A DNA stretch of 10,789 nt from Candidatus Woesearchaeota archaeon (lineage in GTDB: Archaea > Nanobdellota > Nanobdellia > Pacearchaeales > GW2011-AR1). The stretch is from positions 51,973 through 62,761 of the forward strand of contig CAZFJM010000002.1 in assembly GCA_964519415.1 (NCBI GenBank), given 5' to 3'. A program made the translations under genes and the position numbers. Positions within the stretch are counted from its first letter, which is position 1, and every line of letters begins with the position of its first letter. Below the pieces are notes generated by a model, which worked only from the letters and a program-made list of their open reading frames with translations, did no database searches and was not told where the DNA came from. This document shows positions 1,099 to 9,990 of the stretch, in pieces.

Positions 1099-1569
1099 CT
1101 AAAGTTTTCCTTCTGGAAATTTATCCATAAAAGATTGCAATAAAGTATTGTAAACATGAGAATTAATACCTGAAGAATGTCTTTCTAAAATCTCCGGATT
1201 ATATTCTAGACTAAAATAACCACCTATTGCTGCACCAACTGCCGTGCTCCTACTTAATCCGGCATAACAATGAACCATAATATCTTCAAAATTACCTTTT
1301 TGTCTATCTAAAAAACGACAGATATTATTTGAATGCTTTTTACCAAATAAAACAAACTTCCCATAAGTTTCCCTATCTTTACTAACAGTCATAGGAGTAA
1401 GATCATCGAAAACCAAAGATAATAGCCCAACGTATAATTCTTTATTTAAAGTACCATAAGACTCACTTTCCCAAGCCCTACAACGTTTTGAACTCATACA
1501 TCGAATAACAATTGTTTTCTTATCTGGAATAAAATTCTTAGCACTAACAACATCTAGAACATGTATCAT
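1099..1569 (-). CDS. Cysteine-dependent protein phosphatase (dual-specificity / tyrosine phosphatase superfamily), 156 aa, no signal peptide
   Basis: P-loop VHCYAGLSRSTAVGAA matches the HCX5R(S/T) signature (Cys101 codon at 1267-1269, Arg107). Upstream LSLVFDDL supplies a candidate general-acid Asp. The layout resembles small prokaryotic predicted tyrosine phosphatases. Confidence 0.8.
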   Translation of the reverse strand: MIHVLDVVSAKNFIPDKKTIVIRCMSSKRCRAWESESYGTLNKELYVGLLSLVFDDLTPMTVSKDRETYGKFVLFGKKHSNNICRFLDRQKGNFEDIMVHCYAGLSRSTAVGAAIGGYFSLEYNPEILERHSSGINSHVYNTLLQSFMDKFPEGKL

Positions 1570-1577
1570 CTTAAGAA

Positions 1578-3185
1578 TTATTTCTTCTTTTTCAAAGCAG
1601 ACATCTTAACTACTTTTACAGAGGAATTTGCTGCTTTTCTTTTCTTAGCAACAAACCAGTAAGCTAATCCTACAAGAATTAAGAATACAAGGATTCCTAA
1701 AGAAACTCTACCTGTAGTTGTACCTATTACATTACCTGTAATCGTACTGAATCTACTTGGTTGTTCTTCTTCAACTTCAGAAACTGTAGAATTTGTTTGA
1801 TTAGCTACAGTAGTATTTGATGTAGTTGGAATAGTAGCATTAACTGTAACATTTGTTTGATTAGTTACTGTTCTTCTAGAACTTCCACCACCGCCACCAG
1901 TATTACCGTCGTTATTATCGCCGGATCCACCAGTTGATTTGATTTCAAATTCAGCTAAAGTAGTCTTGTTTAATAATTCATTAGTAGAACTGTAAAGAGA
2001 TAAGTTTAATGTATAATTACCTGCTGCTAATCCTGTAGGAACAGAATAATTTGTTGGTAAATCTAAAGAACTGTTAGCTGTGAAATTAGATTCATTTACT
2101 AAAACGTTTCCATTATATAATTGGAAATTCAATAATAAAGGATAAACTTCAGAACTTACATTAACAGTAACATTATCTCCAGAAGTTGTTTCATTATCAG
2201 CATCATCTGTAACGTTATTAACAACAGTAGTATTTACATAAATAGTAACTGTAACTGTTGAACTATTTTTATCTAAATCTGTAATATAATATGTGAAGCT
2301 ATCAGTACCTATAAAACTTGTATTTGGAGTATAAATGAAACTACCATCGCTATCTAAGTTTAAAGAACCATTAACTGTAGTATTTACTAATTCAACAAAT
2401 AAATAATCTCCATCAGCATCAACATCATTAGCCTTAACACCTGCAGAAGCACTAACATTCAATTCCCCTAAAGAAGTAGAATATGTGTCATTCATTGCAA
2501 CCGGATTAGAATTGTTTCCAATAACAATAATAGCTCTAGCAGAAGTACTATTAGAATAACCATCAGATAATAAATAATCGAAATAGTCTACACCACTAGC
2601 ATTAGTTAAAGTTGTTGCATAAGTAAATGCACCCATTCCACCTATATGAAGATTAGAAAGATTTCCTTTGTGAGGTTCATTAGTAATATAGAAGTATACT
2701 GTGTCTCCATCTGGATCACCATCAAGATTATTTAATAAACCAGGAGCGCCTACCTGTAAAGATCCATTAGCAAGAGGTAAAGAATATGATTCACCATAAA
2801 CAAGAGGGACACTATTATTTATACCCAACCATACTCTAGTTGTAGTAGAATTATTAACTCCATCATTAGCAATATAATCGAAATAGTCTACACCACTAAA
2901 GTTAGTGAAAATTGTTGCATAAGTAAAGGAACCCAATCCTCCAGAAATAAGATCATTGAAAAAATAAATTGCACCATGTAAAGTTTCGTTAGAAACTAAA
3001 TAAACATCAGTAATATTAGGTTTAGATAAATCATTATTCAAAACTCCAGGAGCTCTAACTTGTAAAGACTCTTCAGAAGAATTTAAACTAAAATAATCAA
3101 CAGATGTATCAACAGCTGCGCTAACACTAGAAACTAATAAAAATAATGATACAAAAACAAAGGAAAGAACATTAAAATTCTTCAT
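1578..3185 (-). CDS. Cadherin-like / bacterial-Ig-like repeat surface adhesin, N-glycoprotein with C-terminal transmembrane anchor (535 aa)
   Basis: I chose the ATG at 3185 (MKNFNVLSFVFVSLFLLVSSVSAAV, a clear signal peptide), preceded by AGGGAG at 3193-3198. There are three repeat modules with an xGVLxNDxDxDGD-type start and a GxDxFxYxxxD-type end: LQVRAPGVLNND..., LQVGAPGLLNNLDGDPDGD..., and AGVKANDVDADGD...DSDGSFIYTPNTSFIGTDSFTYYITD. I count about 36 N-x-S/T sequons by hand. A Gly-rich linker is followed by a C-terminal TM (LGILVFLILVGLAYWFVA) and a basic tail KKRK. Confidence 0.8.
   Translation of the reverse strand: MKNFNVLSFVFVSLFLLVSSVSAAVDTSVDYFSLNSSEESLQVRAPGVLNNDLSKPNITDVYLVSNETLHGAIYFFNDLISGGLGSFTYATIFTNFSGVDYFDYIANDGVNNSTTTRVWLGINNSVPLVYGESYSLPLANGSLQVGAPGLLNNLDGDPDGDTVYFYITNEPHKGNLSNLHIGGMGAFTYATTLTNASGVDYFDYLLSDGYSNSTSARAIIVIGNNSNPVAMNDTYSTSLGELNVSASAGVKANDVDADGDYLFVELVNTTVNGSLNLDSDGSFIYTPNTSFIGTDSFTYYITDLDKNSSTVTVTIYVNTTVVNNVTDDADNETTSGDNVTVNVSSEVYPLLLNFQLYNGNVLVNESNFTANSSLDLPTNYSVPTGLAAGNYTLNLSLYSSTNELLNKTTLAEFEIKSTGGSGDNNDGNTGGGGGSSRRTVTNQTNVTVNATIPTTSNTTVANQTNSTVSEVEEEQPSRFSTITGNVIGTTTGRVSLGILVFLILVGLAYWFVAKKRKAANSSVKVVKMSALKKKK
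1791..1864. repeat. Short direct repeat in the Asn/Thr-rich stalk of the adhesin gene
   Basis: ATTTGTTTGATTAG occurs at 1791-1804 and again at 1851-1864 (60-nt period). It encodes the NQTN(V/S)T-type sequon-rich stalk. Confidence 0.7.
2571..2940. repeat. Tandem intragenic duplication with a 300-nt period (adhesin repeat modules 1 and 2)
   Basis: 2571-2640 aligns with 2871-2940 at 59/70 identical bases by manual alignment, including a 25-nt identical run ATAATCGAAATAGTCTACACCACTA. The protein equivalents are GGMGAFTYATTLTNASGVDYFDYLLSDG and GGLGSFTYATIFTNFSGVDYFDYIANDG. Confidence 0.85.
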
Positions 3186-3186
3186 A

Positions 3187-3513
3187 TTAATTCTCCCTAA
3201 CACGGTATACTCTATTTGTAGTAAGATAAGGTTCAAAAACATAAACATTTTGAACACGAGCAGGAAATGTATTAACTAAATTAGTATTAGACAAAGAATC
3301 AGTCCAAGAAGCACTATCTGCTAAATTAGTAGTTGATTGAACTTTGTAAGATCTAGTATCTCCAGCATCTAGTTTAACATCTAACTTAACTCGAGAATAA
3401 TTATCTGAAGATAAAATACTGATTCCTGTAAAAACTGGTGGTTGTGGAGCACTAGCAGCAGCAGAAGCTAACATAGCCAATCCGCCAATTGCTGATTTTA
3501 TTTTATTTACCAT
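3187..3513 (-). CDS. Small secreted protein (108 aa) with signal peptide, predicted beta-rich
   Basis: The N-terminus MVNKIKSAIGGLAMLASAAASA-PQPP looks like a cleavable signal peptide. The stop at 3187 lies 1 nt before the adhesin start at 3185, so the two are co-transcribed. A TATA box ends 21 nt upstream of the ATG. The motif YKVQSTTNL...SW...VYRV resembles a small beta-sandwich pattern seen at the ends of many uncharacterised surface proteins; this is from memory and is not a named family. Confidence 0.65.
   Translation of the reverse strand: MVNKIKSAIGGLAMLASAAASAPQPPVFTGISILSSDNYSRVKLDVKLDAGDTRSYKVQSTTNLADSASWTDSLSNTNLVNTFPARVQNVYVFEPYLTTNRVYRVREN
3193..3198 (-). promoter_or_regulatory. 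Shine-Dalgarno-like site for the adhesin gene
   Basis: The minus strand reads AGGGAG, 7 nt upstream of ATG 3185. It lies inside the 3' end of the preceding gene. Confidence 0.5.
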
Positions 3514-3534
3514 AAATATTTCAGAAAAACAGGG

Positions 3535-3549
3535 TATTTAAATCTTTCG
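3535..3549 (-). promoter_or_regulatory. BRE/TATA promoter element for the 3513 unit
   Basis: The minus strand reads CGAAAGATTTAAATA. This 15-mer is identical to 9293-9307. The TATA box ends 21 nt before ATG 3513, giving a leaderless geometry. Confidence 0.65.
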
Positions 3550-3562
3550 GTTCTGATGTAAC

Positions 3563-3597
3563 TATTGAATGACAACAAAATGAAGAATTAATCTTTC
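3563..3597 (-). promoter_or_regulatory. Second, upstream promoter-like element containing the TTGTTGTCA box
   Basis: The minus strand reads GAAAGATTAATTCTTCATTTTGTTGTCATTCAATA. It has a degenerate AAAGAT+AT-rich box followed by TTGTTGTCAYTCAATA, and the same 16-mer with one mismatch occurs at 9274-9289. Confidence 0.4.
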
Positions 3598-4298
3598 TCC
3601 GTCACATTTATCCAATCAATAGAAACATAACTATTCTTTTTAGAAGACAATCCTAAATGAGGAGCATTTATGTAAAATGTATATTCACCATCTTCAACAA
3701 ACAAATCACTTGTATTAAACTCAGCAGAAACTATTTGCCAATTACTTACATTTGTCCTATTAATAGAAGCAGTATAAGCAACTTGTGTAATATACTCTTC
3801 ATAAGATGAAGCCTTTGCACCTATAATTAAAGAATCATTTCTAGGCAAATTATCCTTAATATTAATAGCAATAGTAATATTACCTTTAGAATATTCTGCA
3901 GGAACATTAAAATAAACCATCGGCGCAGTCAAATTTCTATGACTCACATTTTCTTTCAAAGAAGAAACTCTTTCAGAAGGAAATAAAACAGGACTTTTAA
4001 ATTCCTGAATACCACCTAGATCATAAAAATAATTAACTTCTGAAGCAGTATTAAAATTAGAATAAATAACAAAACCAAAGAAGATTATTGGAATAACCAA
4101 TATCAAACCCTTAAGCAATTTAGCCTTAAGAGAATCGTTTGTCCTATATAAAATAGCAAACAATGCAACTAAAAAAATCATCAATAAAGAAACTACATAA
4201 ACATTAAACCCTAAAAAGAAAGGAACAATCAAATTAGCCAAAGCAACTAAAGCAAACAAAACTAAAAATCCAATAGCTAAATTTCTATTTATCCTCAT
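3588..4298 (-). CDS. Integral membrane protein (236 aa): three N-terminal TM helices plus a C-terminal extracytoplasmic sequon-rich domain
   Basis: TM segments are LAIGFLVLFALVALANLIVPFFL, VYVVSLLMIFLVALFAILY and LILVIPIIFFGFVIY. After them come several N-x-S/T sites (NVS, NLT, NIT, NDS, NRT, NVS, NTS, NVT). The start at 4298 lies 1 nt after the stop (4300) of the upstream coiled-coil gene. Confidence 0.7.
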   Translation of the reverse strand: MRINRNLAIGFLVLFALVALANLIVPFFLGFNVYVVSLLMIFLVALFAILYRTNDSLKAKLLKGLILVIPIIFFGFVIYSNFNTASEVNYFYDLGGIQEFKSPVLFPSERVSSLKENVSHRNLTAPMVYFNVPAEYSKGNITIAINIKDNLPRNDSLIIGAKASSYEEYITQVAYTASINRTNVSNWQIVSAEFNTSDLFVEDGEYTFYINAPHLGLSSKKNSYVSIDWINVTEKD

Positions 4299-4299
4299 T

Positions 4300-5343
4300 T
4301 TAATCAGACATAGATTTTATAATGCTATTAAAAAAACCCTTCTCCTCCTGTTTTTCTAATTTCTTAACTGGCTTTTTCACAACTTTAGATTTCTTTGAAA
4401 CTTCTTTAGCAGGAGTAAATTCGACCTTAATCTCAGGAGACTCATCAGCTAAAAGAGAAACTAAATTTGAAAATAAACTCTTATCTTTTTTAGATTGTAC
4501 TTTGACAGATTTAACTTGAACTTCCTTAACTTCTTTCTTTTCACCTTCATCAGATAAAATACCAACAAACTTACTAAAAAATCCAGGCTTGCTTTCCTTT
4601 TTAGATTCTTTAACAACAACTTTCTTTACTGGAACTTCTTCTACTCCAATTTCTTTATTTACTCTTCCTTTAATATAAGCAATTTGGCCTCTTAATCTTG
4701 CAAGCTCTTCATCATTTGAAGCTTTCAAATCATTAAACTTTCTCTCAGAGCTAGATAATATCTCTTTCTTACTTCTACTATAATGTCCTTCAAGTTCAAC
4801 AGAATAATTCTCAAGATTAGCACTATATTGGTCCATCAAACTATTTTGTTCAGAAATACTTCTTTTAGTAGAAGTCTTCAAAGCTCTCATTTCAGAGATA
4901 GCCTTTTTATCCAACTTAGCAAAATTAGCTCTCATTTCAGCCAAACCAGTATTAAGCTTAGCTTCATTAGCACTAGACCATTTATTCTTAAATGAATTCA
5001 ATTCTTCCTTCAATTCTTTATTTTCTAGCTTAACTAACTTCAAACCAACATTAATTTTTTCATTAAAAAGAGGCATAACTTCCTTCAAAACTTCTCTCTT
5101 CAAAGAATCTCTTGCCATATCTTTCTTGAATTTTTTAAAACTAGAATCATTGGAATCAACTTTCTTATTCAAATCAGCAAGATCTTTAGAAAGAGTACTA
5201 TTTTTCAAACTAACAGAAATCTCATCAATTCTTTTCTTAATTTCATCGTTGTCAGCTTTAGCAGCTTTGAAAGAATTACGAATCTTTTCTTCGATTACAG
5301 CAGTTCTTTTATCCAACTCCAAACTTAAATTTATGAAAGTCAT
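4300..5343 (-). CDS. Lys/Glu-rich coiled-coil protein (347 aa) with three C-terminal amphipathic repeats
   Basis: About 230 aa are heptad-like and K/E/L/N-rich with no TM. They are followed by GFFSKFVGILSDE (4546-4584), SLFSNLVSLLADE (4441-4479) and GFFNSIIKSMSD (4303-4338), separated by KVKE-rich linkers. The promoter has leaderless geometry. Confidence 0.75.
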   Translation of the reverse strand: MTFINLSLELDKRTAVIEEKIRNSFKAAKADNDEIKKRIDEISVSLKNSTLSKDLADLNKKVDSNDSSFKKFKKDMARDSLKREVLKEVMPLFNEKINVGLKLVKLENKELKEELNSFKNKWSSANEAKLNTGLAEMRANFAKLDKKAISEMRALKTSTKRSISEQNSLMDQYSANLENYSVELEGHYSRSKKEILSSSERKFNDLKASNDEELARLRGQIAYIKGRVNKEIGVEEVPVKKVVVKESKKESKPGFFSKFVGILSDEGEKKEVKEVQVKSVKVQSKKDKSLFSNLVSLLADESPEIKVEFTPAKEVSKKSKVVKKPVKKLEKQEEKGFFNSIIKSMSD

Positions 5344-5350
5344 TATAAAA

Positions 5351-5377
5351 TGACAACAGAAATACTATTTAAACCTT
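5351..5377 (-). promoter_or_regulatory. BRE/TATA promoter plus TGTTGTCA box for the 5343 unit
   Basis: The minus strand reads AAGGTTTAAATA-GTATTTC-TGTTGTCA-TTTTATA-ATG. The TATA box (5366-5373) ends 22 nt before ATG 5343. Confidence 0.6.
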
Positions 5378-5403
5378 GTTATATAAAAAATTTGTTAAAA
5401 AGC

Positions 5404-5414
5404 CTTTTTAAATA
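5404..5414 (+). promoter_or_regulatory. TATA-box-like promoter for the helicase gene (divergent from the 5343 unit)
   Basis: CTTTTTAAATA ends 27 nt upstream of ATG 5442, which suggests a very short leader. Confidence 0.5.
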
Positions 5415-5441
5415 GTCGAATCACAGATTATAAATAAAAAG

Positions 5442-7313
5442 ATGGAAAATATATTTAGTTCGAAGGAAGACCAGCATGTTTTTGATTATCTTAAAATCTT
5501 AAAATCTCTAAATGAAATTCCTTTCCCAATAGGAAAAACAACTTTAATAGACTTCTTAACAGGCGACTCTACAAATGCATCAGTCTCTAAAAACAAATTA
5601 ACTAGGAAAATAAACTTCAATAGTCTAAAACTATCCAAAGACCAAACAAGAGAAATGATAGATGACCTAATCAAACAAAGATTCATAGAAGTTACAGGCA
5701 CTCTTTCAAACCCATTTATTAAACTTCTAAGCCTAACATCTAAAGGCAGTACAGAACTAATCAACCCCCAATACTATAATAAAAAACAAAAAGAAACTCC
5801 GGTCCTAACAAAGTTTGACATTAGCACAGAAGAAATATACGAATTTCAAGAATTTGATAAGTTCCTAGAAAACTTCAATGAAAACCAAAAAAAAGCAATA
5901 ATCTCAAAGAACGAAAAAATAATGTGTATTGCAGGAGCAGGCTCTGGTAAAACAGCAGTTCTAACAAAAAGAATAGAGTTCTTAGTAAAACATAGAGGAG
6001 TAGATCCTTCAAAAATCCTAGCAATAACCTTCACAAGAAAAGCAAGACAAGAAATGAGAAATAGACTTCAAGAATTCGGAATCTCAACAAATGTAGAAAC
6101 ATTCAACTCTTTAGGAGAACACATTCTTAACAAATATGAAAATGAAATTTACGGAAGACCAATAAGACTAATTAGTACTGCAGACAAAATAACAATGGTA
6201 AAGGAAGCCCTAGAAAGTCAAAAAAAGACACTTTCACAAGCAGTAGAAGAATACTTCACACCGCAACAACGAGCAAATAAAACTCCTGAAAGACTAATGT
6301 GGACTTTCATAAACGATTGTTTCACAATAATAGATTATTTCAAATCTAAAAATACACCAATACCTGATTTCTCAAAAGATGCAGACACTAAACACTATCT
6401 AATTGCCCTAATGGTCCATAGAACTTGCAGCTATATTAAAATATATATGGAAACAGAAGGCCTAAGAGACTTTTCAGACCAAGTTATAGATTCATTAAAT
6501 TTCCTTAAAAGAAACCCCGACAAAATCCCTAGATTCGAACATATCCTAGTAGACGAATACCAAGATCTCAACTCCATGCAAGTAGATTTCATAAAACTAC
6601 TAAATGCTCCAAATATTTTTGGAGTTGGCGATCCCAGACAGTCTATTTTTGGTTGGAGAGGCTCAGAAATCACATATATAACAAACTTCTCAAAAGAATA
6701 CCCTGAATCCGAAGTCGTTCCTTTAATCATGAATTACAGAAGCACAAAAAAAATAGTAGAACTAATGAACTCCTCAATTAAACACTTAAAATTTCCAGAC
6801 TTAGTTTCAAATAAAGAATCCAAAATAAACGAAATAGCAATAGAAAAATTCGAAACAGAAATGGATGAAATTTTAGACGTCCTACAGAAAGTCCTAGAAT
6901 CTAAATCAGAAAGACACGAAATATTTATCCTAGCTAGAACAAATAGACAACTACTAGAAATTTCAAAAATAATGAAAAATATGCAAATACCGCACATATT
7001 GAAAACAGAAGACGAAAATACTCAAATAAATGCAAAGGAAGGAGAAGTAACTTTAGCAACAATCCACTCAATCAAAGGATTACAAGCAAGAGAAACTTTC
7101 GTAATTGGCTGCAACGTTCAAAACTTCCCCTGTAAAGCATCCGACCACCCAATAATTGAAATGATAAAAATGGAAAACTACGACAAAGACGAAGAAGAAA
7201 AGAGATTATTCTACGTAGCAATTTCAAGAGCAAAAGAAAAACTATATTTAAGTTATTCAGGAACGAAAACAGATTTCATCACCGATGAAATGATTAAGAT
7301 AATCAATGACTGA
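5442..7313 (+). CDS. SF1 UvrD/PcrA/Rep-like DNA helicase with an N-terminal winged-helix (RQC-like) extension, 623 aa
   Basis: All SF1A motifs are readable. Q-region: NENQKKAI. Motif I: AGAGSGKT (5931-5954). Ia: AITFTRKARQEM. Ib: TFNSLG. II: ILVDEYQDLN. III: GVGDPRQSIFGWRGS. IV: NYRST. V: TIHSIKGLQARETFVIG. VI: EEKRLFYVAISRAKEKLYLSY. The roughly 150 aa N-terminal extension contains FPIGKTTLIDFLTGDS...MIDDLIKQRFIEV...LSLTSKGSTEL. Confidence 0.9.
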   Translation: MENIFSSKEDQHVFDYLKILKSLNEIPFPIGKTTLIDFLTGDSTNASVSKNKLTRKINFNSLKLSKDQTREMIDDLIKQRFIEVTGTLSNPFIKLLSLTSKGSTELINPQYYNKKQKETPVLTKFDISTEEIYEFQEFDKFLENFNENQKKAIISKNEKIMCIAGAGSGKTAVLTKRIEFLVKHRGVDPSKILAITFTRKARQEMRNRLQEFGISTNVETFNSLGEHILNKYENEIYGRPIRLISTADKITMVKEALESQKKTLSQAVEEYFTPQQRANKTPERLMWTFINDCFTIIDYFKSKNTPIPDFSKDADTKHYLIALMVHRTCSYIKIYMETEGLRDFSDQVIDSLNFLKRNPDKIPRFEHILVDEYQDLNSMQVDFIKLLNAPNIFGVGDPRQSIFGWRGSEITYITNFSKEYPESEVVPLIMNYRSTKKIVELMNSSIKHLKFPDLVSNKESKINEIAIEKFETEMDEILDVLQKVLESKSERHEIFILARTNRQLLEISKIMKNMQIPHILKTEDENTQINAKEGEVTLATIHSIKGLQARETFVIGCNVQNFPCKASDHPIIEMIKMENYDKDEEEKRLFYVAISRAKEKLYLSYSGTKTDFITDEMIKIIND

Positions 7314-7326
7314 AAGGTATTTAAAC
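7312..7326 (+). promoter_or_regulatory. BRE/TATA promoter for the 7347 gene, overlapping the helicase stop codon
   Basis: GAAAGGTATTTAAAC ends 20 nt upstream of ATG 7347, a leaderless geometry. Confidence 0.55.
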
Positions 7327-7346
7327 AGAAGATAAATAAGATAATT

Positions 7347-7751
7347 ATGGTAGACCTACAAAATAATAAAAAGTTAATTATAATCATTGCAGCAATCGCT
7401 GCATTAGTAATCATAGCCGGAATCGCAATATCAATTTTTAGTTCTTCATCTAATAAAACAGAAAAAGCTCCAGAAGACCAAACCATCGGAGAAATATTAG
7501 ATGGGTGTATGCAAACATGTAGCCAACTTTCAGGTTCAACTAAAACAGATTGCGAAGCAGGATGTACTCAAGCAAGACAAACAACAGTAAGTGAATTTGA
7601 AAAAGCAGGAATAGTAGGAGCAGAAGATATGACAACAGAAGAAGCATTACAAGAAATAAAAGCTAACTGCGTGAATATTTGTCAAACAAATCCTCAAATA
7701 CCTGAAGAATACAGAGCAGAGTGTGTTATCAAATGTGAATCAGTACAATAA
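7347..7751 (+). CDS. Membrane-anchored, cysteine-rich small protein (134 aa) with two twin-CX3C modules
   Basis: The N-terminus has NNKK followed by a TM (LIIIIAAIAALVIIAGIAISIF). The eight Cys are at positions 54, 58, 69, 73 and 108, 112, 126, 130. That gives CX3C-X10-CX3C (7506-7565) and CX3C-X13-CX3C (7668-7736). Confidence 0.7.
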   Translation: MVDLQNNKKLIIIIAAIAALVIIAGIAISIFSSSSNKTEKAPEDQTIGEILDGCMQTCSQLSGSTKTDCEAGCTQARQTTVSEFEKAGIVGAEDMTTEEALQEIKANCVNICQTNPQIPEEYRAECVIKCESVQ

Positions 7752-7752
7752 A

Positions 7753-9222
7753 TTACTTTCTTCTTCCAACCAAAACTATAATTAAAAGCATTAAAATAAT
7801 TGCAATAAGTAAGATCATATTGAAAATTAAACCATTTTCTTCTCCAGATAGATAACTTTCCATACTAAATCCTTCACTCTCGCTATTATTTACATAATTA
7901 AGAGCAACAACGAAATTATCATTCATCGAAATTGAATCTGCAGTTTCGTTAGAATCAAAGTCATTTACTGGTGCATGCGTATTATGTCCACAGCTAGAAG
8001 TATGAACATGAGTATTTGTACTGCTAGTTGAATTATTAGTTGTAGTATTTGTTGTAGTATTAATTGTAAAGTTAACAGTCGCATTACCTGTAATATTTGT
8101 AGTAGTATTGATAGTCGTATTTATTGTTACATTGGTAGTAATATTAATAGTTGTATTTGTTGTTATATTACCTAGATTACCTACTGTCACATTTGGATTA
8201 GGTAATAAAAAGCTTGAATTAACTCCTAAATAATCTGTATAATTAACATAAGCAATTTGATTTAAATGACTTAAAGAGGAATTATAAACAAAAACATCGA
8301 AACTGAAAGTTTTTACTTCTCCAATATTCAAAGAGCCAGCATCGCAAATTACTCTTCTTTCATTCCAAATATAATGACAATCTGCAGGCAGAGTTATTGG
8401 GAAAACTCCTTGCTCTAAAATATCTGTAACAACTATATTACTTCCAGAAACACTAGTTAAAACAGTATTATTAATATCATCAACCAACCAACCAGCAATA
8501 TCATTCATAGTATTAGGATCACTAACAGTCGGATAATGCCAATACATCCCATTACCAATACGAGATATATTCCTAAGTAAATTAAATCCAGGATTGTTAA
8601 ATTCTTCTCCAATACCTATTGTATAAATAGAAATATTATTTGCAGCAGCAAGCCTTGCCTGTTGAAGAGCGTATGCTCTAGCATTAGCTGGAATATTTGC
8701 CTTTCCATCAGAGATTAAAACAATAACTCTTGAATTATTAGTATTATTAAACTGTTCAGAAGCTTTCTTTATTGCTTCACCAATATTAGTACCGCCAGAA
8801 GCAGAAATTGCACTAATATTATCCTTTACAGAGATATAATCCTGAGTCAAGTTATTTCTTACAAAAGGATTAGCATTAAAATAAATAAGGCCAACTCTAT
8901 CATAAACAGAATTTAAACTATCAACTACTGCCTTTCCAGCTAATTTTGCCTGTGAGAGTTTATCCCCACACATACTACATGAATTATCTATAACTATAAT
9001 AAAATCTGAAGGAACAATAACAGATCCAGAGCTACCTGCACCATTAACAGTCAAAGTAATAGTAGCCCTATCTCCAACAGACAGAACATTAGAAGATAAT
9101 GTCTTATTTCCTTCTAAATAGGGAACTGCTGAAATAAATGTTAATGAAACTACAACTAATAAAATAAAACTTACTAAACTAAGAATGATTCTCTTTGCAT
9201 TTTTGTGTGGTTCTCTCTTCAT
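7753..9222 (-). CDS. von Willebrand factor A (vWA) domain surface glycoprotein with MIDAS motif, Asn/Thr-rich stalk and C-terminal TM anchor (489 aa)
   Basis: N-terminal signal or anchor IILSLVSFILLVVVSLTFISA. MIDAS DxSxS is IVIDNSCSM (DNSCS at 8974-8988), with GGTNIGEA and VLISDGKAN as the later vWA motifs. The stalk is NITTNTTINITTNVTINTTINTTTNITGNATVNFTINTTTNTTTNNSTSSTNT. The C-terminal TM is IFNMILLIAIILMLLIIVLVG followed by RRK. Confidence 0.85.
   Translation of the reverse strand: MKREPHKNAKRIILSLVSFILLVVVSLTFISAVPYLEGNKTLSSNVLSVGDRATITLTVNGAGSSGSVIVPSDFIIVIDNSCSMCGDKLSQAKLAGKAVVDSLNSVYDRVGLIYFNANPFVRNNLTQDYISVKDNISAISASGGTNIGEAIKKASEQFNNTNNSRVIVLISDGKANIPANARAYALQQARLAAANNISIYTIGIGEEFNNPGFNLLRNISRIGNGMYWHYPTVSDPNTMNDIAGWLVDDINNTVLTSVSGSNIVVTDILEQGVFPITLPADCHYIWNERRVICDAGSLNIGEVKTFSFDVFVYNSSLSHLNQIAYVNYTDYLGVNSSFLLPNPNVTVGNLGNITTNTTINITTNVTINTTINTTTNITGNATVNFTINTTTNTTTNNSTSSTNTHVHTSSCGHNTHAPVNDFDSNETADSISMNDNFVVALNYVNNSESEGFSMESYLSGEENGLIFNMILLIAIILMLLIIVLVGRRK
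8011..8178. repeat. Low-complexity repetitive DNA encoding the (I/V)N(I/T)TT stalk of the vWA protein
   Basis: Reiterated GTTGTAGTATT / GTAATATT / ATTGTT units on the + strand. They encode residues 349-404, which are nearly all N, T, I and V and form overlapping N-x-T sequons. Confidence 0.75.
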
Positions 9223-9273
9223 GATAATCCATCACACACTCTCTTCACTCGGGTTAAACTAAATAATAGTTAT

Positions 9274-9307
9274 TATTGAGTGACAACAATCCTATTTAAA
9301 TCTTTCG
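9274..9307 (-). promoter_or_regulatory. BRE/TATA promoter plus TTGTTGTCA box for the vWA gene
   Basis: The minus strand reads CGAAAGATTTAAATA-GGA-TTGTTGTCACTCAATA. The 15-mer is identical to 3535-3549. The TATA box sits about 70 nt upstream of ATG 9222, which implies a leader of roughly 50 nt, unlike the other units. Confidence 0.6.
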
Positions 9308-9332
9308 TTTTGAAACCACCAACCAGTAACAT

Positions 9333-9375
9333 AAAAAACAATAGAAAAATTATAACCAATAAAATAAAAGAAAAA
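9333..9375 (-). terminator. Oligo-T terminator region after pilin-like gene 1
   Basis: The minus strand downstream of the stop at 9381 reads GTAAGTTTTTCTTTTATTTTATTGG...ATTTTTC...GTTTTTTATG. Several T5-T6 runs (complements of 9371-9375, 9361-9370, 9345-9349 and 9333-9338) match archaeal intrinsic termination signals. Confidence 0.55.
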
Positions 9376-9380
9376 CTTAC

Positions 9381-9956
9381 TTAAGGAAGAGTATTATATG
9401 CAATATTATAACGACCATCTGTTCCAAGATTGCTATCATCTACATTAAATGCAGACCTTAAATTTACTACATCCAAAGCATTTGCTCTTGAACATTCCAT
9501 CCCATTAATGAAAATAACCCAGTTGGAATTATCACTTCTTTTACTGTTGTTAAATTCTAAACATTTATTATATGCTAATTTATTGGAAATATCAGAATTA
9601 CATTTTGCAGCAACAGTGCTAGAGATTTCTGCTTCTGTGAAAGAAACAACACCGCTTCTTTGCATAAATTCACAATTAGTATATCCCTTCTCACCGCCTA
9701 CAACAGCAGGATATTCAAAAGTACCACAATACTTAGCAAACTTGTCTGCATCAGTAGATCCACTTAAAGAAGATAAGAAACTTGTTTGACAAGAAGCAAT
9801 TCTTGCTTTGTTTTCAACACCTTGTGCGTCAATAACAGTACTAACTTTACCAAAACTAGTATAAACGAAATATGCAACAACAACTGCAGCAATAACAGCT
9901 ACAATAATCCACGGAGTAACCTCCATAGTCTCTGCACCTTTTTTATTCATCCTCAT
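9381..9956 (-). CDS. Type IV pilin-like protein with class III signal peptide (191 aa), six-Cys ectodomain
   Basis: The N-terminus MRMNKKG-AETMEVTPWIIVAVIAAVVVAYFVY has a short basic leader, Gly at -1, Glu at +5 and a roughly 20-aa hydrophobic helix. This closely resembles archaeal pilin/archaellin-type precursors (KKGQxxxE...hydrophobic). An alternative start is ATG 9950. The TATA box ends 21 nt upstream of ATG 9956. Confidence 0.7.
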   Translation of the reverse strand: MRMNKKGAETMEVTPWIIVAVIAAVVVAYFVYTSFGKVSTVIDAQGVENKARIASCQTSFLSSLSGSTDADKFAKYCGTFEYPAVVGGEKGYTNCEFMQRSGVVSFTEAEISSTVAAKCNSDISNKLAYNKCLEFNNSKRSDNSNWVIFINGMECSRANALDVVNLRSAFNVDDSNLGTDGRYNIAYNTLP

Positions 9957-9963
9957 TCTTTTC

Positions 9964-9990
9964 TTACAACAAACCTCTTTATAAATCTTT
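9964..9990 (-). promoter_or_regulatory. BRE/TATA promoter plus TGTTGTAA box for pilin-like gene 1
   Basis: The minus strand reads AAAGATTTATAAA-GAGGTT-TGTTGTAA-GAAAAGA-ATG. It begins directly after the stop codon of the upstream gene (9991-9993). Confidence 0.6.

Follow-up and report, generated by a model that had tools for sequence, protein, structure and literature searches.

Short sequences that recur in front of several genes of one locus may be part of the promoters themselves or the target of a regulator, and this is the question raised by a stretch of 10,789 nucleotides (nt) from an uncultured DPANN archaeon, Candidatus Woesearchaeota archaeon (assembly GCA_964519415.1, contig CAZFJM010000002.1, positions 51,973 to 62,761 of the forward strand), hereafter the window. 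A preliminary description had reported an 8-base box, TGTTGTCA, between the TATA box and the start site of four minus-strand promoters of surface-protein genes, and had read it either as a lineage-specific promoter-proximal element or as the operator of a regulator that coordinates a surface regulon. We found that the box is only the left (5') end of a 20-base site with two-fold symmetry. Judging from its sequence and placement, this site, TGyT-GTCAYT-N4-ARTnAC (about 20 bp, with a 7-nt spacer in some relatives), is likely to be an operator to which a single sequence-specific transcription factor of the lineage binds, probably as a dimer, because it is rare, dyad-symmetric, specific in its spacing and conserved at several non-homologous promoters.

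Exact copies of TGTTGTCA occur four times in the window, all on the minus strand, against 0.36 expected, and none of 200 shuffles reached four. Three of them (3570-3577, 5351-5358 and 9281-9288) are intergenic and lie where they had been reported. They precede an operon starting at 3513 (the 3513 operon), an operon starting at 5343 (the 5343 operon) and a gene for a vWA-domain protein. The flanks quoted for them are also right, as is the TATA geometry (TTTAAATA, 7 nt and the box at the 5343 gene; TTTAAATA, 4 nt and the box at the vWA gene), and a sequence check confirmed that none of three plus-strand promoters carries the box. The fourth exact copy, previously overlooked, lies at 7630-7637, antisense in the CX3C gene (plus-strand sequence ...ATGACAACAGAAGAA). 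Since it has no right half-site, it is not an operator; it also lacks the 20-mer extension, and an exact copy of it in the orthologue from relative L124 (13126-13133) is attributed to the codons that it overlaps. The remaining promoter of the original four, that of a pilin-like gene (9964-9971), holds a one-mismatch version only, TGTTGTAA, which carries no statistical weight because one-mismatch matches are not enriched in the window (17 vs 10.3 expected). As for the restriction to the minus strand, it holds for all copies, but the bias is incidental since all target operons in the window happen to lie on that strand.

The three intergenic boxes stay alike for 12 bases further, which gives the 20-mer TGyTGTCAYTnwwTAATnAC, whose core is the inverted repeat GTYAYT-N4-ARTNAC. 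In the 8-mer first noticed, the left half-site is represented by its first four bases, preceded by a TG and two more bases. With the pattern GTYAYTNNNNARTNAC we found three sites in the window, two of them matching on both strands, that is, five strand matches vs 0.04 expected and a shuffle maximum of two. Among 16 non-redundant sites of the lineage, the half-sites are complementary at 75 of 96 pairs (78%) when the true centre is used and at 14-49% when any of 17 shifted centres is used instead; positions T2, A4, T6, A11, T13 and A15 are invariant.

The spacing between the half-sites is equally specific. In a survey of 124 kb of lineage DNA (9% non-coding), in which shuffles gave about 1.2 hits per spacer, a spacer of four bases (N4) had 13 hits, 12 of them intergenic, and one of seven bases (N7) had nine, all intergenic. 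Spacers N2, N3, N5, N6, N8 and N10 had 0-1 hit each, so that the spacings intermediate between N4 and N7 are not enriched, and the four strand matches of N9 correspond to two palindromes in coding DNA according to our own open reading frame calls. Unrelated control loci (877 kb) gave two hits for N4 and two for N7. These controls came from a GTDB scan for TTTAAATA-N(3-8)-TGTTGTCA, and among the matches listed almost all were unrelated bacterial loci; among 185 loci in total, the N4 pattern was found in the lineage loci and as two single hits. The N7 sites at L123 5803, L172 12943 and 8257, L135 460 and L136 1100 have the same half-sites at orthologous promoters.

The relatives compared were GTDB genomes (L122, L123, L124), JGI metagenomes (L131-L136) and loci from look-ups of homologues of the helicase encoded in the window (L172-L178) or of the 347-amino-acid (aa) protein encoded by the 5343 gene (L179-L185 and L189). 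A GTDB query with a vWA alignment returned no relatives beyond the same three genomes, and one with an alignment of 5343-gene orthologues returned one locus only. When only the three window sites were used to build a weight matrix, a scan of 86.6 kb from relatives produced exactly five hits scoring 19.8 bits or higher, each at an orthologous position; no shuffle scored above 18.3 bits. In the 124 kb surveyed, the sites fall at the same three kinds of place, namely the gene for the 347-aa protein, the vWA gene and the operon of the small secreted protein and the adhesin. In L123, the 5343-type and 3513-type operons are on different contigs and each has its own site.

Upstream of the small-secreted-protein/adhesin operon, the site lies 4-8 nt before the transcription factor B (TFB) recognition element (BRE) in eight genomes, with orthologues of the window site in L122, L123, L124, L172, L173, L179 and L183. 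Six species share both the site and the BRE/TATA of this 3513-like promoter, but not the 5' flank. Orthologues of the 347-aa gene that are 49-76% identical and found in differing genomic contexts (L183, L185, L179/L180 and L181/L182) all keep the site, as [G/A]TCATT-N4-AATGAC, exactly 11 nt after the TATA box, where it overlaps or abuts the ATG. Two further orthologues, in L135 and L136, have the N7 form, which abuts the TATA box. The most distant orthologue, in L189 (34% identity), is uninformative, being inside an operon without a promoter of its own. At the vWA gene, the site is placed between the TATA box and the predicted start, with the N4 spacer in three genomes (the window together with L122 and L124) and the N7 spacer in L123, L132 and L172.

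The three window sites, here called A, B and C (table 1), differ in their position relative to the promoter. Site B starts 7 nt after the TATA box and its right half-site contains the ATG of the 347-aa gene (5341-5343), and Site C begins 4 nt beyond the TATA box of the vWA gene and extends to the predicted start site, which precedes the ATG by about 48 nt. Both span about -18 to +5. Archaeal repressors binding in this interval block the recruitment of RNA polymerase. A factor bound at Sites B and C would block polymerase recruitment or promoter opening, and repression of the 5343 operon and the vWA gene is suggested by this placement between TATA box and start. Site A lies 11 nt after the stop codon of the gene for the 236-aa protein, and it precedes the BRE of the 3513 promoter by 7 nt and the TATA box by 15 nt. 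Archaeal activators typically bind just upstream of the BRE (PMC5512572). A factor at Site A would occupy this usual activator position, but the 3513 promoter already has a consensus BRE/TATA, so that the effect could be of either sign. From these features we infer that a protein binds the sites and that the three operons are co-regulated.

Table 1. Sites, promoters and genes of the window discussed in the text (positions in the window)
Feature	Position	Strand	Remarks
Site A	3558..3577	-	20-mer TGTTGTCATTCAATAGTTAC; dyad GTCATT-caat-AGTTAC at 3558-3573
Site B	5339..5358	-	20-mer TGTTGTCATTTTATAATGAC; perfect 6+6 dyad GTCATT-ttat-AATGAC at 5339-5354
Site C	9269..9288	-	20-mer TGTTGTCACTCAATAATAAC; core GTCACT-caat-AATAAC at 9269-9284
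BRE/TATA, 3513 operon promoter	3535..3550	-	CCGAAAGATTTAAATA; ATG 21 nt after TATA box
BRE-like sequence and TATA box, 5343 operon promoter	5366..5378	-	CAAGGTTTAAATA; TATA-to-ATG 22 nt
BRE/TATA, vWA promoter	9293..9307	-	CGAAAGATTTAAATA
Target operon 1 (5343 operon)	3588..5343	-	347-aa predicted coiled-coil protein (4300-5343) and 236-aa membrane protein (3588-4298)
Target operon 2 (3513 operon)	1099..3513	-	108-aa secreted protein, 535-aa adhesin, 156-aa protein
108-aa secreted protein	3187-3513	-	
535-aa adhesin	1578-3185	-	Big_9 and cadherin-like domains
156-aa protein	1099-1569	-	weak DSPc phosphatase match
Target gene 3, 489-aa vWA-domain protein	7753..9222	-	N-terminal signal anchor; directly downstream of pilin-like genes
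FEN-1-like gene, 3' end	in window		read by eye from translation
UvrD-type helicase gene	in window		plus-strand promoter
Several small genes	in window		N-termini resembling archaeal type IV pilins

Several points weigh against a single operator of this kind. No transcription-factor gene is evident among the window proteins. The sole regulator candidate near a site is a gene of L172 (8277-9047, plus strand) for a 256-aa protein with a sigma70_r4-type helix-turn-helix (HTH) domain. This gene is divergent from the site upstream of the 3513-like gene, and an N7 site, GTCATTTAATAGTAATAAC, at 8257-8275 fills its TATA-to-ATG spacer. Its product may be an autoregulated factor, but it was rejected as the common regulator, being an orphan with no homologue but itself and none in the lineage loci. 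Neither the TrmB proteins found in L177 nor a regulator of the AsnC type in L132 is conserved near the sites, and these were discarded as well. Additionally, the motif is asymmetric, with an invariant TG 5' of the dyad that has no mirror on the other side, and two spacer classes 3 bp apart are awkward for a rigid dimer. The 3513 promoter, given its consensus BRE/TATA, does not look activator-dependent. Conservation is partly due to shared descent, all relatives being fairly close (helicase identity among close relatives is 72-93%). Finally, the source-genome DNA covered was the 14.1-kb Logan contig L001, in which the window DNA is also present, and the lineage DNA covered amounted to about 170 kb from partial genomes, which limits what can be said of the extent of the regulon and of its functional bias.

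Among the alternatives, the least improbable is that TFB or RNA polymerase contacts the box as a lineage-specific promoter-proximal or initiator element of the core promoter, which would mark a promoter class and not an operator. Sites B and C do lie in the -18 to +5 region, and the distance from TATA box to dyad is fixed within each orthologue group (11 nt for the 5343 gene, 8 nt for the vWA gene). Nevertheless, this distance differs between targets (2, 8 or 11 nt), and dyad symmetry is unexpected of a directional element. The preliminary description was right about the geometry of leaderless genes, a TATA box followed after about 21 nt by the ATG, which we found in 48 candidate promoters of the lineage; however, only three of these carry the site, all at orthologues of the 5343 gene, and the other 45 or so do not, which speaks against a general or lineage-specific element. 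Moreover, Site A precedes the BRE, as do its seven orthologues, and no conserved TATA box stands before these sites. The box at 3570 had been placed between a TATA box and a start, but the TATA-like GAAAGATTAATTC taken for the former overlaps the stop codon of the preceding gene (3588-3590) and is not conserved in relatives, so that this placement does not hold. We consider a core element unlikely.

Less likely still is that Sites A and B are direct repeats left by the insertion of the 5343 and 236-aa gene unit between the 3513-like and helicase genes, in the manner of an att-like or cassette boundary. In the window this two-gene unit does lie between the two sites, which form direct repeats; only one site is present in L123 and L124, where the unit is missing; and other genes occupy the same gap in L122 (an MscS channel gene and a paralogue of the small secreted protein) and in L172 (the HTH gene). 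On the other hand, both sites belong to a four-gene block (347-aa, 236-aa, small secreted protein, adhesin) that is found again as a whole in L179 and L183, no variable DNA adjoins Site C, and beyond the inserted gene of L172 there is no second copy. No recombinase gene was seen nearby. The spacer is not constant either, and arms of 6 bp with spacers of 4 or 7 nt are too short and too variable for the known core sites of tyrosine recombinases.

An even lower probability is assigned to the dyad being a messenger RNA (mRNA) hairpin that controls translation or stability, for example by hiding the ATG at Site B, where the perfect 6-bp inverted repeat does include the start codon. Because the TATA-to-ATG spacing of 21-22 nt puts transcription starts at or near the ATG, the left arm, and with it most of Site B, would fall outside the transcript. 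In addition, in several relatives no co-directional gene precedes the promoter that follows Site A, covariation is missing at half-site positions 3/14 and 5/12, and the leader of the vWA gene has neither a stable fold (z between -0.8 and +0.9) nor an Rfam match. Least of all do we credit chance similarity and shared ancestry without function, which is very unlikely: partial A/T-rich palindromes are common at 70% A+T (the value for the genome, the window having 30% G+C) and the relatives are close, but the observed count is about 100 times the expected one, enrichment is confined to two spacings and to intergenic DNA, and the site is kept beside wholly diverged flanks and stands at paralogous, non-homologous promoters.

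The operator of a regulator, the other reading of the preliminary description, accommodates the dyad symmetry, the N4/N7 spacing and the conservation beside diverged flanks, all of which support it indirectly. The idea of a surface regulon stands in part: the vWA protein and the operon of the secreted protein and cadherin-like adhesin fit it, but the 347-aa coiled-coil product has no signal peptide; its 236-aa partner is a membrane protein. A Pfam scan gave no match for either of the two. The 347-aa gene is always followed by the gene for the 236-aa protein, and its product has three C-terminal amphipathic motifs (GFFSKF, SLFSNLVSLL, GFFNSIIKS) that are kept in orthologues; it may be a membrane-associated scaffold. 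At the 3513 operon, public gene calls begin the first gene at a downstream ATG (95 aa). We favour the start at 3513 on the basis of the TATA box with its 21-nt geometry and of the orthologues, and the same distance between TATA box and ATG leads us to predict a leaderless mRNA. We suspect that the vWA protein is a pilus-associated adhesin.

Transcription factors are few in Woesearchaeota and other DPANN archaea, which are believed to rely on being attached to other cells. It is conceivable, though rather doubtful, that the three sites are the local part of a lineage-specific switch of host attachment in an episymbiotic DPANN archaeon, in which one regulator would use two positions (upstream of the BRE or over the start) and two spacer registers (N4 and N7), turning the cadherin-like adhesin operon on while the vWA gene and the coiled-coil/membrane pair are off, or the reverse. 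If true, such a switch would give a first handle on how DPANN archaea regulate host contact.

Unlike nearly all its neighbours, which are leaderless, the vWA gene is preceded by a conserved leader of about 48 nt (window 9223-9268, minus strand; orthologues in L122, L123, L124, L132 and L172). Within this leader are an invariant block, GGTGAAGAGAGTGTGTGAT, and a T-rich stretch flanked by the inverted repeat AACnATT...AATnGTT; the T-rich stretch could instead be a second, weak TATA box. A structured RNA was rejected here: there was no Rfam match, RNAalifold predicted 0 pairs and hence no consensus fold, and the fold z-scores already given indicate no excess stability.

The pilin-like genes of the same locus have promoters of other kinds. 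The promoter at window 9957-9990 was rejected as a member of the set, since, apart from the mismatch in its box, it lacks the dyad and another spacer is conserved among its orthologues, in which the box reads TGTTCTAG, TGTTCTAA, TCTTTTAG, TCTTCTAG or TCATTTAG. It has a strongly conserved BRE/TATA of its own, CATAAAAAGATTTATAAA, followed by a spacer of roughly TAGSTTTSWTYTAGAAWAWTT, and orthologous promoters are found at L122 14266, L123 6474, L124 15906, L132 20432, L134 1956 and L172 13593. This conserved spacer differs from the dyad site and may have a regulatory role of its own. Promoters of upstream pilin-like operons (L001 12049-12090; L123 8629; L124 18121 and 20672) share TCGTTAAGTTTATAAT and a T/G-rich spacer, for example tctgttttggcttgttttttt, and constitute a third promoter flavour in the locus.

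The 3513-like gene is separated from the helicase gene by a gap (window 3514-5441) that is a hot spot of variable content. It holds the pair of genes for the 347-aa and 236-aa proteins in the window, the MscS channel gene and the paralogue of the small secreted protein in L122 (7600-9320), and the orphan sigma70_r4-HTH gene in L172 (8150-9110), and it is empty in L123 and L124. Upstream of the helicase gene, L136 has a nucleotidyltransferase/HEPN pair and L135 a DUF5678 gene and an aspartyl-protease-like gene, followed in both cases by a small gene (158-166 aa range) whose product has a hydrophobic N-terminus. The UvrD-type helicase has an N-terminal RQC-like winged-helix domain (residues 18-107; window 5442-5760), and its gene is widespread in Pacearchaeota and Woesearchaeota (1150 homologues, E <= 1e-50). 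A weak Rfam match inside it to the Clostridioides difficile small RNA n00280 (7167-7264, plus strand; 33 bits vs a gathering score of 65, E = 0.029) is most likely due to chance. With regard to the FEN-1-like gene, XPG_N/XPG_I domains were found in the neighbouring gene of relatives L172 and L179.

We found no operator of a regulator described in the literature for Woesearchaeota or other DPANN archaea. The motif is new and the kind of feature, a transcription-factor binding site, is ordinary; its regulator and physiological role are what we infer around it. A probable operator shared by the genes for a vWA protein and a conserved coiled-coil/membrane pair and by a cadherin-like adhesin operon makes a concrete and testable regulon, and the 20-bp site may be used as a probe for its regulator.

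Among known systems, the archaeal promoter-proximal element or initiator resembles the site in location, since its interval of -15 to +1 matches Sites B and C. It is, however, a general, A/T-rich and directional core element, whereas the site described here is rare and dyad-symmetric and also occurs upstream of the BRE. Regulators of the EarA/ArnR type, which act on archaellum and pilus operons, bind immediately upstream of the BRE (PMC5512572), as Site A is placed. Nevertheless, EarA recognizes four 6-bp consensus sequences (PMC5512572), which we read as repeated boxes and not as a 16-bp dyad. In addition, the targets of these regulators are weak promoters, unlike the 3513 promoter with its consensus BRE/TATA, and the pilin-like promoters of our locus are devoid of the site.

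A further parallel is the Thermococcales glycolytic motif (TGM, TATCAC-N5-GTGATA), bound by TrmBL1/Tgr. Several differences separate the two. The window site has GTCAYT, a spacer of N4 or N7, ARTnAC and an invariant 5' TG, which does not correspond to the TGM consensus, and its dyad gave no hits with an N5 spacer. It belongs to DPANN Woesearchaeota and not to Thermococcales, and its targets are adhesion-type genes instead of sugar metabolism. Moreover, no TrmB-family gene could be linked to the site, TrmB genes being seen only in the distant relative L177, which itself has no such sites. On the other hand, both motifs consist of hexamer half-sites forming a dyad around a short A/T-rich spacer, with related half-site cores (RTCAC in the TGM, GTCAY here), and in each case the sites of one regulon follow the TATA box at some promoters and precede the BRE at others (PMC4706686). 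On the palindromic TGM, TrmBL1 represses from downstream of the TATA box and activates from upstream of the BRE (PMC4706686), and the positional logic that we propose for Site A as opposed to Sites B and C therefore has a precedent in an archaeal regulator that acts according to the position of its site.

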